Shown: positions 1 through 18,873 of the stretch, piece after piece
How the letters are laid out: the number at the start of each line of letters is the position of its first letter
How positions within the stretch are numbered: position 1 is the stretch's first letter
IMG/VR virus record: IMGVR_UViG_2585427795_000005
Direction: 5' to 3' (one strand)
Source: a virus
Taxonomy: Duplodnaviria > Heunggongvirae > Uroviricota > Caudoviricetes
Length of the DNA: 19,823 nucleotides
Notes under the pieces: generated by a model
Told to the model about the DNA's origin: nothing
The model's input: only the letters and a program-made list of their open reading frames with translations
The model's database searches: none
Translations under genes and position numbers: made by a program

Positions 1-104
1 ATTTAGCACCGACGTAGCCCCACTGTTCGTCCATTTCAGCGCAGACAATCACATCACTGCCCGGTTGTATGCGCGAGGTTACCGACTGCGGCCTGAGTTT
101 TTTA
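1..104 (-). CDS. insB: IS1 insB, 5' portion only (rest lies outside the window), reached by -1 frameshift from insA
   Basis: Minus-strand frame downstream of the A6C slippery site translates [34 protein letters not shown], the InsB N-terminal region; boundaries approximate. Confidence 0.6.
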
Positions 105-354
105 AGTGACGTAAAACCGTGTTGAGGCCAACGCCCATAATGCGGGCAGTTGCCCGGCATCCAACGCCATTCATGGCCATATCAATGATTTTCTGGTGCG
201 TACCGGGTTGAGAAGCGGTGTAAGTGAACTGCAGTTGCCATGTTTTACGGCAGTGAGAGCAGAGATAGCGCTGATGTCCGGCGGTGCTTTTGCCGTTACG
301 CACCACCCCGTCAGTAGCTGAACAGGAGGGACAGCTGATAGAAACAGAAGCCAC
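79..354 (-). CDS. insA: IS1 InsA, transposition inhibitor / N-terminal part of the InsAB' transposase
   Basis: 91-aa translation [18 protein letters not shown]...LKNSGRSR matches the IS1 InsA sequence as I recall it; zinc-finger CxxC...CxxC plus HTH. Confidence 0.93.
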
Positions 355-382
355 TGGAGCACCTCAAAAACACCATCATACA

Positions 383-980
383 CTAAATCAGTAAGTTGGC
401 AGCATCACCGATGATGTTTATATATGACGCTATCAGCGATGAGTCATCACGACTATCCACTTCACAAGCCATTGCCCTGATGTAGTCGGCGCTGGCAACG
501 TTGTTGTATTCCGTCGCAAAGCAACAGAGTAACGTCAGAACATGCTCTGTCGTTATTTCGCTCCAATTGATGTTGAAAAATTCATCGCCTTTTTTATCGT
601 GTTCGGAATCGAAGATGCTTTGGTGGAGGATGTATTTGCCGGATTCCTTGCGCGGTAACTTGATTGCTTTCTGGCGTTCCAGCTCCTTATAAATCTGCAT
701 TGCCTCAATTAGTACCGGCCTGCCGTTCATGAAGGGATCGCGCAACCTTACACGCTGGCCAACTCGACCAGTAATAAAGCTGTTTTCCTCTTCCACCAGC
801 ACGATAAAACCCTTTTCCTCTTTTTCTCGCAATTCGCGCAGCAGCTGGAGTTCCATGTCGCGGCGGCGTTCAGGGTAGCTGGTCCGCTCAGCCATTATCA
901 GCTCGTTATTGATCCATGCAGCAGTCATTGACGCCGGTTTGCCGACGCTCATCGAAACAACGCATATTTTCTTATCCATA
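383..980 (-). CDS. Hypothetical backbone protein, 3' end truncated by the IS1 insertion; occupies the position I recall for P1 mat, downstream of ref
   Basis: ORF with ATG at 980 preceded by AGGGG (the track start at 1006 is GTG). The last eight codons (GDAANLLI, then stop at 383..385) are encoded by the IS1 terminal repeat, so the native C-terminus is lost. Confidence 0.5.
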
Positions 981-1167
981 GCGCCCCTACAAAAAAGAAA
1001 AGCCACCAGCGGCGGCTTAGCAATACAACTGAAGGTAGCGCCCGGTACTCAGACTGTGCCGTCCATGGAATATTTGAAAAGGGATCCATCCGTACCGGGC
1101 GTGTGATGATTCTGACTGAAGTCACTTGTCAGTTGTCAATCATTTATCATTAAAAATAATATATTTA

Positions 1168-1728
1168 TTAGTGCATGATGTTTGCCATCTCATAGGCGTC
1201 AGCCAGTAACTCCATCTCTGACTTGTTCAGCAGGGTGAATTCTTTCTTGCCTCCAACCACACCATCGGCATGAACAGGGACCAGCCAGGGGTATTTTGCT
1301 CTTACTTCAGCCGGTGCTGCATGCTGGTGGTGCCATCTACAAAGTGGCAATTGCTTTTTATGACAACCCGGCGCGGTACGACCAGCGATATGGTGCAGAG
1401 ACACCTCATTAGATATTACTCCATGCATATAGCAGGCAATGCAGGGGAGAGCGCCAAGAGCATTGGCGATGCGCCGTTCCTCCGCCGTTGGTGTTCTCCC
1501 CTTCAAGCCACGAGATTTTATTTTTACAGCGCTTTTCCGCGTTTTGCTGGCTGGTGGGCGCTCTTTCTGTTTAGCGATACGGCGGTCGATAGTATCTCGC
1601 ATTTTCTGATATTGAGATTCTCGCCAGACCGGATCAGCCAACTTCTCCCGTTGCCGAGCGATCGCTCGTTCTCTGGCTGCCTTCTGCCACTTGCGGCACT
1701 GTTCAATTTTTTGTTCGATTGTTTTCAT
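1168..1728 (-). CDS. ref: Ref, recombination enhancement function (HNH-type endonuclease)
   Basis: 186-aa translation MKTIEQKIEQCRKWQ...; Cys/His HNH-like motifs (CIACYMHG...HHIAG...CHKKQLPLCRWHH); size and position downstream of cre as in P1; C1 operator upstream. Confidence 0.85.
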   Translation of the reverse strand: MKTIEQKIEQCRKWQKAARERAIARQREKLADPVWRESQYQKMRDTIDRRIAKQKERPPASKTRKSAVKIKSRGLKGRTPTAEERRIANALGALPCIACYMHGVISNEVSLHHIAGRTAPGCHKKQLPLCRWHHQHAAPAEVRAKYPWLVPVHADGVVGGKKEFTLLNKSEMELLADAYEMANIMH

Positions 1729-1734
1729 ATGGTC

Positions 1735-1761
1735 AAAAAAAAGGCGGCCTAATGGCCGCCT
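1735..1761 (-). terminator. Intrinsic terminator-like hairpin plus T-run immediately upstream of the ref start codon
   Basis: Minus strand reads AGGCGGCC-ATTA-GGCCGCCT followed by TTTTTTTT, then GACCAT and the ATG of ref; 8-bp GC-rich stem. Confidence 0.5.
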
Positions 1762-1813
1762 ATGATGTCAAGGAGTTAAGTAATGGCACGTCTTCGTAGT
1801 TGACAAAAACTGC

Positions 1814-1843
1814 GGCTCAATTATAGCAATCAATTAGAGCAAT
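1814..1843 (-). promoter_or_regulatory. C1 repressor operator upstream of ref, with a weaker overlapping tandem site, and a -10 TATAAT
   Basis: Minus strand ATTGCTCTAATTGATTG (1827..1843, 14/17 to consensus) and ATTGCTATAATTGAGCC (1814..1830); minus-strand TATAAT at 1820..1825. Confidence 0.65.
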
Positions 1844-1909
1844 GGTAGATATTTTGTTTATCGCGAATCACATTTTTTCACTTCAGTACCTGTGTGCTAT
1901 ACTCCTTCT

Positions 1910-1920
1910 TGATTGATTGG
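1910..1920 (-). repeat. Copy 1 of a recurring 11-mer (minus strand CCAATCAATCA), followed by AAGGAG
   Basis: Exact 11-mer also at 3609..3619 and 16947..16957; here followed by AAGGAG ... GTGAAAAAATG, but the ATG is immediately followed by TGA. Confidence 0.6.
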
Positions 1921-1949
1921 ATGCGGAATACAAACCCGCTCTTTTGTGC

Positions 1950-1979
1950 AGCCTGGCTCCTTGCCAGGCTTTTTTTTAT
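1950..1979 (+). terminator. Rho-independent terminator on the plus strand, convergent with the cra-position ORF
   Basis: Plus strand AGCCTGGC-TCCTT-GCCAGGCT followed by TTTTTTTTAT. Confidence 0.45.
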
Positions 1980-2287
1980 TTCATCATGGAAGCTGTTAAC
2001 GCTTTGGACCTTGCTGAACTGATTGTGAGGGCTTTGTTAACGAGCCCCAGAAATTCGACAAACTCAGACATCACTTTACCAAGACCGCGCCGTGCTTCTT
2101 CCTCGGTGGCATTCATTACGAAATGTTCAGCACTACGCATACTTTTGACAGGAAACGCAACGGATATTGAGTCAATATCAGGCATTCTATCGCTCAGCTT
2201 TACAGTGACAATGACGGCTGGCGACTGAATATTAGTGCTTACAGACAGCACTACATATTTTCCGTCGATGTTGAAATCCTTTCTCAT
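1976..2287 (-). CDS. Hypothetical 103-aa protein at the position of P1 cra (cre-associated), directly downstream of cre
   Basis: ORF with GGTGG just upstream of the ATG; preferred over the overlapping plus-strand ORF 1917..2228, which starts at TTG and reads through the terminator hairpin. Identity with Cra is positional only. Confidence 0.5.
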   Translation of the reverse strand: MRKDFNIDGKYVVLSVSTNIQSPAVIVTVKLSDRMPDIDSISVAFPVKSMRSAEHFVMNATEEEARRGLGKVMSEFVEFLGLVNKALTISSARSKALTASMMK

Positions 2288-2303
2288 ATGCCACCATAAA
2301 TAT

Positions 2304-2320
2304 CAAATAATTAGAGCAAT
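2304..2320 (-). promoter_or_regulatory. C1 operator between the cre stop and the downstream ORF
   Basis: Minus strand ATTGCTCTAATTATTTG (14/17); minus-strand CATAAT -10-like hexamer directly upstream at 2323..2328. Confidence 0.6.
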
Positions 2321-2337
2321 TTATTATGCGTTGACGG

Positions 2338-3369
2338 CTAATCACCATCTTCCAGCAGGCGCACCATTGCCCCCGTTTCACTATCCAGATTACGGATATA
2401 GTTCATGACAATATTTACGTTGGTCCAGCCACCAGCTTGCATGATCTCCGGTATTGAAACTCCGGCGCGGGCCATATCTCGCGCGGCTCCGACACGGGCA
2501 CTGTGTCCAGACCAGGCCAGGTACCTCTGACCAGAGTCATCCTTAGCCCCGTAAATCAATCGGTGAGTTGCTTCAAAAATCCCTTCCAGGGCGCGAGTTG
2601 ATAGCTGGCTGGTGGATGATGGCGAGGCAACACCATTTTTTCTGACCCGGCAAAACAAGTAGTTATTCGGATCATCAGCCACACCAGAGACAGAAATCCA
2701 TCGCTCGACCAGTTTAGTTACCCCCAGGCTAAGTGCCTTCTCTACACCTGCGGTGCTAACCAGCGTTTTCGTTCTGCCAATATGGATTAACATTCTCCCA
2801 CCGTCAGTACGTGAGATATCTTTAACCCTGATCCTGGCAATTTCGGCTATACGTAACAGGGTGTTATAAGCAATCCCCAGAAATGCCAGATTACGTATAT
2901 CCTGGCAGCGATCGCTATTTTCCATGAGTGAACGAACCTGGTCGAAATCAGTGCGTTCGAACGCTAGTGCCTGTTTTGCACGTTCACCGGCATCAACGTT
3001 TTCTTTTCGGATCCGCCGCATGACCAGTGAAACAGCGTTGCTGTCACTTGGTCGTGGCAGCCCGGACCGACGATGAAGCATGTTTAGCTGGCCCAAATGT
3101 TGCTGGATAGTTTTTACTGCCAGACCGCGCGCCTGAAGATATAGAAGATAATCGCGAACATCTTCAGGTTCTGCGGGAAACCATTTCCGGTTATTCAACT
3201 TGCACCATGCCGCCCACGACCGGCAAACGGACAGAAGCATTTTCCAGGTATGCTCAGAAAACGCCTGGCGATCCCTGAACATGTCCATCAGGTTCTTGCG
3301 AACCTCATCACTCGTTGCATCGACCGGTAATGCAGGCAAATTTTGGTGTACGGTCAGTAAATTGGACAT
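2338..3369 (-). CDS. cre: Cre site-specific tyrosine recombinase
   Basis: 343-aa translation MSNLLTVHQNLPALPVDATSDEVRKNLMDMFRDRQAFSEHTWK...MVRLLEDGD is recognisably P1 Cre with a few substitutions; loxP lies about 410 bp upstream. Confidence 0.97.
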   Translation of the reverse strand: MSNLLTVHQNLPALPVDATSDEVRKNLMDMFRDRQAFSEHTWKMLLSVCRSWAAWCKLNNRKWFPAEPEDVRDYLLYLQARGLAVKTIQQHLGQLNMLHRRSGLPRPSDSNAVSLVMRRIRKENVDAGERAKQALAFERTDFDQVRSLMENSDRCQDIRNLAFLGIAYNTLLRIAEIARIRVKDISRTDGGRMLIHIGRTKTLVSTAGVEKALSLGVTKLVERWISVSGVADDPNNYLFCRVRKNGVASPSSTSQLSTRALEGIFEATHRLIYGAKDDSGQRYLAWSGHSARVGAARDMARAGVSIPEIMQAGGWTNVNIVMNYIRNLDSETGAMVRLLEDGD

Positions 3370-17609: not shown

Positions 17610-18725
17610 TCAGCGGACGTAAATAGTGCCGCCGTTCTCTTTTTCCCATGCATCGCTACGTGCATAGCAAACATCGAGAAGTCTTCTTGCCGCTGTTTCC
17701 TCTAAACCCAATTCGACAACCAACTGCTCATGACGGCGGGTAACCACATCAAACAGAGTATGCAACCCTTTAGTTGCCAGATCATCAATGAATTCCGGTT
17801 CGAACGGCAGCTCTGCATCTGCCAACATAACCTCTTGCGCCCACTCAACTCGACGGACCAATTCCGGGCGGCGGCTTTCCATCTCTTTACAGATCAATTC
17901 ATGGAAGAACTCTACCCAACCTTCCGGCTGGAACTCGCGGAAAATGGCCAACGGCTGGAAGTTTGGCATCAACCATTCGTTGATTCGGATATCAATGGCA
18001 TAGCCCATGTCGCAGCAGAACTGATAAGCAAAGTCCAGCTTAGAAACGATATAAGGACGCTCGTTATTGAACTCTTTAGGCGATGAGATCCCATAAGCCA
18101 GGAGGCGCGGGAAGAAGGAGATTTGCCCTAACGTCGGATGAAGTTTGCTTGCAGGGAAACGGCGCTCAGTAATGCCATACATTTCCTTCTTGAGCGTCGC
18201 AAATTTGGCATTCTCATTAACCAGCGCGGTAACCTCTGCTTTTTTATTAGCAAATGCCACGCGCGCTTCGCTTGCATCTTTAATAGTTTTTTTGAGCTGT
18301 TGGTTAAGGTCGGCGACCTGCTTACGCAGTTCCTGTCGCTCGCTTTTAGCTTTGTTATAGCGTTTCTCAAGGTTAAAAGGATCAAGTTTCATGATCTCTT
18401 TATATTGAGATTTTAGCGTTGAAATCTGTGAGTTCCGCAGTTCAACCATCGCGGTCATTTCATTGAGTTTTGTTTCCAGCTCAATGCTTATACGTTCGGC
18501 ATTATCAGCACGCTGGTTGGCGTCATGCGTCGCATCGTCGATCGCGTCCTGTTGCTGGCGTTTCAAATGTTCAATTTGCAGCTGAAGCTCTTCAATTTCT
18601 TTACCCTTCAGACCGAGATCCAACTGCATATTTTCAGCTGCATCTACCAGGGAGTTATGGCTATCAGCTTCTGCGTTATAAACATCAATAAGCTGTGCGT
18701 GAAGCATCTCCGCTGACTGAACCAC
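17610..18725 (-). CDS. Hypothetical protein (371 aa): N-terminal coiled-coil region and an uncharacterised C-terminal domain
   Basis: Long ORF; N-terminal half rich in heptad-like E/K/Q/L segments. Start uncertain (GTG at 18725 or ATG at 18707, neither with a good SD). Confidence 0.6.
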   Translation of the reverse strand: MVQSAEMLHAQLIDVYNAEADSHNSLVDAAENMQLDLGLKGKEIEELQLQIEHLKRQQQDAIDDATHDANQRADNAERISIELETKLNEMTAMVELRNSQISTLKSQYKEIMKLDPFNLEKRYNKAKSERQELRKQVADLNQQLKKTIKDASEARVAFANKKAEVTALVNENAKFATLKKEMYGITERRFPASKLHPTLGQISFFPRLLAYGISSPKEFNNERPYIVSKLDFAYQFCCDMGYAIDIRINEWLMPNFQPLAIFREFQPEGWVEFFHELICKEMESRRPELVRRVEWAQEVMLADAELPFEPEFIDDLATKGLHTLFDVVTRRHEQLVVELGLEETAARRLLDVCYARSDAWEKENGGTIYVR

Positions 18726-18873
18726 ATTATCAAAAAAACGTGCTGTGAGGTCATCACAACTAACGCGGCGTTGCGCGGCCCGGATGTTCTGGATAATGGC
18801 CGGGATACCGGCATTCAGGACATCAGGGATAGATACATTTTCGATTGATTGCTTTTATGCTGAAGTGCTCATT

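Follow-up and report, generated by a model that had tools for sequence, protein, structure and literature searches.

A strong terminator-like hairpin lying directly before the start codon of a gene raises the question of how that gene is expressed, and this is the arrangement found upstream of ref in the viral DNA analyzed here, a stretch of 19,823 nt (19.8 kb) hereafter called the window. The original prediction considered that ref is attenuated at transcription and also weakly initiated, or else that its annotated start is wrong. The gene occupies 1168..1728 on the minus strand, with its ATG at 1728..1726, and its 186-aa product falls in the Ref family of RecA-dependent HNH nucleases (Pfam PF16786). 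The ORFs of IS1 insA, mat, ref, c8 and cre are found at 79..3369, all on the minus strand and with the P1 map direction reversed relative to the window. By megablast the segment 1100..2300 is 97.6% identical to phage P1 over its full length, and it also matches P7, RCS47, SJ46 and other P1-like phages. Based on this gene order and on these matches, the window therefore represents a P1-type phage or phage-plasmid. In the neighboring mat region (383..1125, minus strand) a run of five G in P1 is reduced to four near position ~990, and the 250-aa mat ORF of P1 is split into ORFs of 58 aa (949..1125) and 207 aa (383..1006), which may reflect a real frameshift, a shorter Mat starting at an internal ATG (MDKKICVV...) or a homopolymer sequencing error.

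An attenuator of ref is already known in P1, attenuator-antiterminator control of this gene having been published, to judge from the title, by Windle, Laufer and Hays (1988, J Bacteriol 170:4881-4889) for the same gene and control region as those of the window. Ronayne et al. (2016, PMC4713147) reported that the ref transcript increases 73-fold on induction by C1 inactivation, that C1 occludes 'one of the ref promoters', that H-NS binds the ref 5' region, that Ref expression is toxic to the host and that Ref sensitizes lysogens to ciprofloxacin. How tightly Ref is repressed is relevant to phage-antibiotic synergy and to the use of Ref as a programmable nuclease.

Read on the minus strand, the region runs ...CCTTGACATCAT-AGGCGGCC-ATTA-GGCCGCCT-TTTTTTT-GACCAT-ATG. 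The 5' arm AGGCGGCC (1754..1761), identified by sequence, terminator scan and folding, and the 3' arm GGCCGCCT (1742..1749), identified by sequence and scan, enclose the tetraloop ATTA (1750..1753), which in relatives is replaced by ATCA, TAAA, TTCG or TCCG. An uninterrupted T8 (1735..1742; 7-10 T in relatives), within or just after which termination is predicted, is followed by the 6-nt spacer GACCAT (1729..1734), which holds no Shine-Dalgarno (SD) sequence and corresponds to GCCAT in P1 and ACCTT in other relatives. The stem consists of seven GC pairs and one A-U pair, and both the sequence and the scan agree with the description first given of a GC-rich 8-bp stem and an 8-T run ending 6 nt before the ref ATG, with the qualification that the optional eighth pair, A1761-U1742, takes its U from the start of the T-run, so that the element may be read as an 8-bp stem followed by T7 or as a 7-bp all-GC stem followed by T8. 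The hairpin by itself folds at -16.6 kcal/mol, and the fold of the 116-nt leader is 3.7 sd better than those of dinucleotide shuffles. That the hairpin is a strong one is equally upheld, as it ranks first among the 31 terminator-like matches obtained in a scan of the whole window, and sites comparable to it, defined by 7 or more Watson-Crick pairs, of which 6 or more are GC, with 7 or more T among the 8 bases that follow, were absent from all 300 first-order-Markov, composition-matched simulated windows. The real window holds two, the ref-leader hairpin and a plus-strand site at 1950..1970. The opposite strand shows no T-run at the ref-leader hairpin, the T8 being present on the ref strand only. 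A GC-rich stem, a short loop, a U-tract directly 3' and covariation, all features of an intrinsic (Rho-independent) terminator, are thus found together in this element.

The position of the hairpin relative to the promoters was established from the P1 GenBank record AF234172, which carries a predicted promoter P2ref at 1957..1985, a C1 operator Oref at 1962..1978 and a second predicted promoter P1ref at 2017..2044 of that record. Once mapped onto the window, Oref corresponds to ATTGCTCTAATTGATTG at 1827..1843 on the minus strand, where it also matches the C1 operator consensus, of which nine matches occur in the window against 0.17 expected by chance; the extended -10 of P2ref, supported by both sequence and mapped annotation, is TGCTATAAT at 1820..1828 on the same strand. 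The order is consequently P2ref/Oref (1820..1848), hairpin (1742..1761) and ATG (1728), with the hairpin ~52 nt downstream of the -10 element of the C1-controlled P2ref, in accordance with the earlier placement of the hairpin between a C1-controlled promoter/operator and ref. Since it lies downstream of P2ref/Oref, the hairpin is inside the ref leader and is therefore a leader terminator. The leader RNA that precedes it would run from a predicted P2ref transcription start at ~1813, placed from the position of the -10, to 1762 (minus strand); its 5' end is predicted to fold into a hairpin (1813..1786), and it also contains a single-stranded stretch rich in C and U, ACUCCUUGAC. This 5' hairpin was considered as a conserved element and discarded, its inner pairs being broken, by inspection, in two other loci (L064 and L019). 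In the ~21 kb examined the P1 record bears no terminator annotation of any kind, so its silence at the ref hairpin is uninformative, and a literature search returned nothing relevant on a P1 transcriptome, on start sites or on the names P1ref, P2ref and Oref.

In order to evaluate conservation, 83 usable P1-type loci, with Ref 93-100% identical, were collected from Ref protein scans, to which a scan of genome contigs for Ref contributed two further P1-type loci and one short fragment only. P1 itself reads GGCGGCC-ATTA-GGCCGCC-T8-GCCAT-ATG, placing the element 5 nt from the ATG, and the window departs from it by a T-to-A change that gives the stem its A-U pair, a spacer longer by one base, one C-to-A change in the leader and a 1-nt deletion that turns TTGCCA into GTGCCA. 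Among the 83 loci the seven GC pairs are essentially invariant, while the loop (ATTA, ATCA or TAAA), the T-run (7-10) and the spacer (GCCAT, GACCAT or ACCTT) vary; a few loci carry C-to-T changes in the 3' arm (GGCCGCT, GGCCGTT) that retain G·U pairs. More distant Ref proteins, 45-68% identical, exist on ~90 kb contigs of genera that include Klebsiella, Salmonella and Pantoea, and their loci were recovered by profile-based scans. Loci L085-L088, of the Klebsiella/Salmonella type, encode Ref proteins 64-68% identical, and their upstream order is ATTGCTCTAATA, TATAAT, a ~50-nt leader ending in GACGGTC-TTCG-GACCGTC, T8-10, a 10-15 nt spacer and ATG or GTG, and in the Pantoea alvi-type locus (L185) TTTGCTCTAATAAATTT is followed by a short leader ending in GCCGCC-TCCG-GGCGGC, T7 and then ~95 nt to the ATG. 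Three Ref lineages accordingly share one layout, C1 operator, promoter, leader, GC hairpin, T-run and ref, with stems that differ by lineage: GGCGGCC/GGCCGCC in the P1 type, GACGGTC/GACCGTC in L085-L088 and GCCGCC/GGCGGC in L185. In an alignment of 11 distinct hairpin versions, 88.6% of the cells are paired, a proportion of only 15-64% once the 3' partners are displaced by 1-3 columns, compensatory changes affect three of the eight pairs (G-C to A-U, C-G to U-A and G-C to C-G), and the covariation score was reached by none of 500 shuffles. The G·U variants pair only in the sense-strand RNA of ref and the T-run is always 3', which together with the compensatory changes indicates selection on an RNA hairpin and U-tract in the ref sense strand, i.e. 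on a terminator. In L185 the hairpin stands ~95 nt from the start and therefore the conserved property is a terminator in the leader, not a hairpin touching the AUG; among the lineages compared, closeness to the AUG is specific to that of P1. The C1 operator and the GC hairpin are both missing from the Pantoea agglomerans-type loci (L165-L181). What is conserved there is an inverted repeat rich in A and T, CTAAAA-AATA-TTTTAG, ~12-35 nt upstream of an SD-less ref ATG, which suggests a different regulator for ref.

Taken together, these observations make it quite probable that the hairpin and T8 are an intrinsic terminator in the ref 5' leader and act as the attenuator of the P1-type ref control region. 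From the title of the 1988 paper, and given that this is the sole terminator-like element in the leader, we infer that the attenuator described at that time is exactly this hairpin. The suggestion that ref is attenuated at transcription is thus supported by the location downstream of P2ref/Oref, by the compensatory changes across three lineages and by the attenuator of the 1988 title. According to the mechanism that we propose, RNA polymerase starting at P2ref after C1 inactivation would mostly terminate at ~1737-1734 and release a leader RNA of ~77 nt, read-through from cre/c8 in the lysogen would also mostly end at ~1737-1734, and ref mRNA would arise from the read-through fraction only. The AUG at 1728 would be translated without SD pairing, likely in an S1-type, SD-independent manner through the single-stranded U8 and the A-rich region, and the terminator, added to repression by C1 and H-NS, would hold down the level of a RecA-dependent nuclease that is toxic to the host. 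Since induction clearly leads to Ref expression, termination must be incomplete. To what was already known, the present analysis adds the comparative conservation of the structure, the restriction of its AUG proximity to the P1 lineage and the finding that an RNA antiterminator is unsupported in this variant. It presents the leader terminator as a selected part of a portable cassette composed of C1 operator, promoter, terminator and ref, which strengthens the 1988 model.

A different role for the same terminator is suggested by what lies upstream of the cassette, c8 in the window, where cre and c8 are co-directional with ref, and ORFs unrelated to these in L085 and in L185. The upstream genes of every one of these lineages run in the same direction as ref and extend as far as the operator, with no sense terminator belonging to them. 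The T-run of the hairpin past the c8 stop (1950..1970) is carried by the opposite strand, which leaves the ref-leader hairpin as the first sense-strand terminator downstream of cre/c8. The hairpin might then be mainly a 3' terminator of the cre-c8 unit, insulating ref from lysogenic read-through, with the attenuation of P2ref transcripts as a side-effect. We regard this as unlikely to be its main role, given that the hairpin always accompanies the operator-promoter-ref cassette whatever the upstream gene, and that it is located downstream of the ref promoter; a pure insulator would be equally effective upstream of it. Insulation is nevertheless compatible with a leader attenuator and not exclusive of it.

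The start codon requires separate consideration. Within the 18 nt upstream of the ref ATG the best anti-SD duplex reaches +0.7 kcal/mol, which amounts to no pairing, when random positions in the window have a median of -1.7 kcal/mol and the neighboring genes and most long ORFs of the window range from -5 to -12 kcal/mol; the lack of an SD before ref, as initially noted, is therefore real. The accompanying proposal that the annotated start may be wrong did not hold. The first 42 residues of Ref are conserved in the homologues of 45-68% identity, for instance in the block AIARQREKLADPxWRxxQY, these homologues start with ATG or GTG at the homologous position, and no in-frame ATG, GTG or TTG exists between codon 1 and Met43 of ref. 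Family-wide conservation of the N-terminal part before Met43 shows that the start is correctly annotated; according to published work, the N-terminal 76 residues make up the region of Ref that binds DNA (PMC4330346). A longer ORF is likewise ruled out, because relatives differ by single-base indels in the T-run and the spacer, which shows that no coding sequence lies directly before the ATG. In P1 the frame is open from a TTG 60 nt upstream, but the window has a TAG and frameshifting indels and the T-run varies from 7 to 10, which eliminated both an in-frame extension and a leader peptide, and no conserved leader ORF was found. A leaderless ref mRNA was also discarded, no -10-like element being present at the right distance from the ATG.

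Could the hairpin and U8 then be chiefly a translation-initiation element of this SD-less gene, an S1-binding or standby site with little termination? Between the hairpin and the AUG there are 14 single-stranded nt (U8 and GACCAU), the U8 covers -14 to -7, the usual place of an SD, and the T-run is separated from the ATG by a fixed 5-6 nt in 83/83 P1-type loci. The start lies in an A/U-rich stretch predicted to be only partly structured, AAA is the second codon, and in the A-rich first codons the paired probability averages 0.36 from +4 to +29. Start contexts of this kind can support SD-independent, S1-assisted initiation. A precedent may be found in the rnd gene (RNase D) of E. coli, in whose leader a hairpin followed by U8 was reportedly needed for translation (work attributed to Zhang and Deutscher, 1992). 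The likeness extends to a terminator-like GC hairpin with eight U just upstream of the start, and rnd is weakly expressed; unlike ref, however, rnd is said to keep an SD and a UUG start, with the U-tract acting in translation. Against a predominant role of this kind, the closeness of the U-tract to the start, as expected for a rnd-type U-rich enhancer, is not conserved in the Ref family (5-6 nt in the P1 type, 10-15 nt in L085-L088 and ~95 nt in L185), and ref of L088 has its own GGAG. In addition, a perfect GC stem with U8 is the product expected of selection for termination, and it is an attenuator that the title of the 1988 paper names. We consider it improbable that the element serves mainly in translation. 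Because the adjacency of hairpin and start is not maintained outside the P1 type and L088 has a GGAG, a translational role of the hairpin and U8 would be at most a lineage-specific addition to the leader attenuator.

A further candidate function concerns the terminated leader itself. The ~77-nt RNA (~1813 to 1735) would have the build of a small RNA, with a 5' hairpin, a single-stranded CU-rich stretch containing CUCC, a terminator hairpin and a U-tail of at least 7, and CUCC is found just upstream of the terminator in both P1-type and Klebsiella/Salmonella-type leaders, the remaining leader having diverged. If this RNA were to act as a small RNA of the Hfq type under C1 control, the ref mRNA being what results from read-through, its CU-rich stretch could base-pair with ribosome-binding sites rich in purines on mRNAs of the phage or the host. 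We give this possibility only a slight chance.

The counterpoint to attenuation that can be raised from the P1 record is P1ref. This predicted promoter (TTGCCA-16-CATCAT) ends at the first base of the hairpin, so that its transcripts, beginning within the 5' arm, would escape the terminator; ref might then be expressed mainly from P1ref, and the hairpin would only silence transcription arriving from upstream. The statement that C1 occludes 'one of the ref promoters' (Ronayne et al., PMC4713147) is in line with a second promoter. Nevertheless, P1ref is a prediction only, with 9/12 consensus matches in P1, and its counterpart in the window (1762..1789, minus strand), with -35 GTGCCA (1789..1784; TTGCCA in P1) and -10 CATCAT (1767..1762) abutting the hairpin, retains 8/12, below the scan threshold. 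Promoter matches of this quality are no more frequent in the window than expected by chance (27 found, 31 expected), and P1ref has no counterpart in the Klebsiella/Salmonella-type leaders, which keep the terminator. Moreover, the strong C1 dependence of ref, with its 73-fold induction (PMC4713147), is left unexplained by an unrepressed promoter. That ref is expressed mainly from P1ref is accordingly more doubtful still. Finally, it is hardly credible that the inverted repeat is a protein-binding palindrome at the DNA level or a product of chance, even if GGCGGCC/GGCCGCC makes a perfect arm pair, given that pairing is kept while the stem sequence differs wholly between lineages, that the G·U variants pair only in the ref sense-strand RNA, that, read in the direction of ref, the T-run invariably follows the stem and that 0/300 simulated windows had such a site.

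If the hairpin is the leader attenuator of ref, the means by which polymerase passes it deserves attention. An alternative RNA helix was sought by barring the 3' arm from pairing and comparing the energy gained when the 5' arm pairs with the leader to that obtained with shuffled leaders. In P1 the 5' arm finds a partner ~30 nt upstream, GUUGCCA (GUUGCCA:UGGCGGC), within the TTGCCA segment, with a gain of -7.7 kcal/mol that a fraction of 0.11 of the shuffles equaled or exceeded, and in the Klebsiella/Salmonella-type leaders the partner is ACUGUCA, with gains of -7.0 to -7.8 kcal/mol and fractions of 0.02-0.05. The gain in the window leader is -2.1 kcal/mol (0.82 of the shuffles as good or better) and that of L185 is 0 (1.00), and the partners occupy non-homologous alignment positions in the different lineages. 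Because of the low gain in the window and of this lack of homology, the folding model does not support an RNA-only antiterminator in the window and supports it weakly elsewhere. No known RNA family was recognized either: in an Rfam scan the best overlapping matches, suhB/mmgR at 20 bits and STnc50 at 25 bits, stayed below their gathering thresholds of 41 and 55 bits, and their E-values exceeded 0.3. In the window variant the extra A-U pair would slightly strengthen the terminator, and the competing upstream partner seen in P1 would be weakened; read-through is therefore more likely to be a basal leak or factor-dependent than the outcome of an RNA switch.

Attenuators of the trp/pyrBI type likewise have a terminator hairpin and a U-tract between the promoter and the first structural codon, but ref differs from them by having no conserved leader ORF and, in the window, no significant alternative antiterminator helix. 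A second resemblance is with the PR'-tR' region of phage lambda, which controls its late genes and is the source of 6S RNA, and in which a strong intrinsic terminator shortly after the promoter results mostly in short leader RNAs and expression of the downstream genes needs read-through. What lambda and ref share is the short distance between a promoter and the strong intrinsic terminator after it; lambda, however, uses the Q antiterminator, loaded at the promoter, whereas in ref the promoter itself is repressor-controlled. We know of no Q-like factor or qut-like site for ref.

Other elements were observed around the locus and elsewhere in the window. On the plus strand, GCCTGGC-TCCTT-GCCAGGC followed by T8 (1950..1978), also very strong as a terminator, is located directly past the c8 stop and oriented against c8, and it would stop plus-strand transcription running antisense through ref. 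Two promoter-like sites exist on that strand, TTGTCA-16-AATAAT (1133..1160; 10/12), between mat and ref at the position of P1 Omat and directed antisense into ref, and TTTTCA-17-TATACT with a TG (1875..1903), ~50-70 nt before the terminator, and a weak SorX-like Rfam match covers 1902..1976. Either site could give rise to an antisense or small RNA ending at 1970-1978; matches like these two are no more frequent than chance in the window. Upstream of c8, a C1-operator-like site, ATTGCTCTAATTATTTG, is present at 2304..2320 (minus strand), 17 nt before the c8 ATG. At the same place laboratory P1 has ATTGCTATAAT, with no operator annotated in its record, and the CTCTAAT form is found in 70/82 P1-type loci, so that C1 may control c8 in the majority of natural relatives. 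A further hairpin followed by T7 (GTTGTGATGACCTCACAGC ACG TTTTTTT; 18726..18760, minus strand) stands directly upstream of a GTG at 18725, the first in-frame start of a 371-aa ORF without an SD, and overlaps a promoter-like ATGACC-17-GATAAT; the true start of this ORF may be elsewhere.
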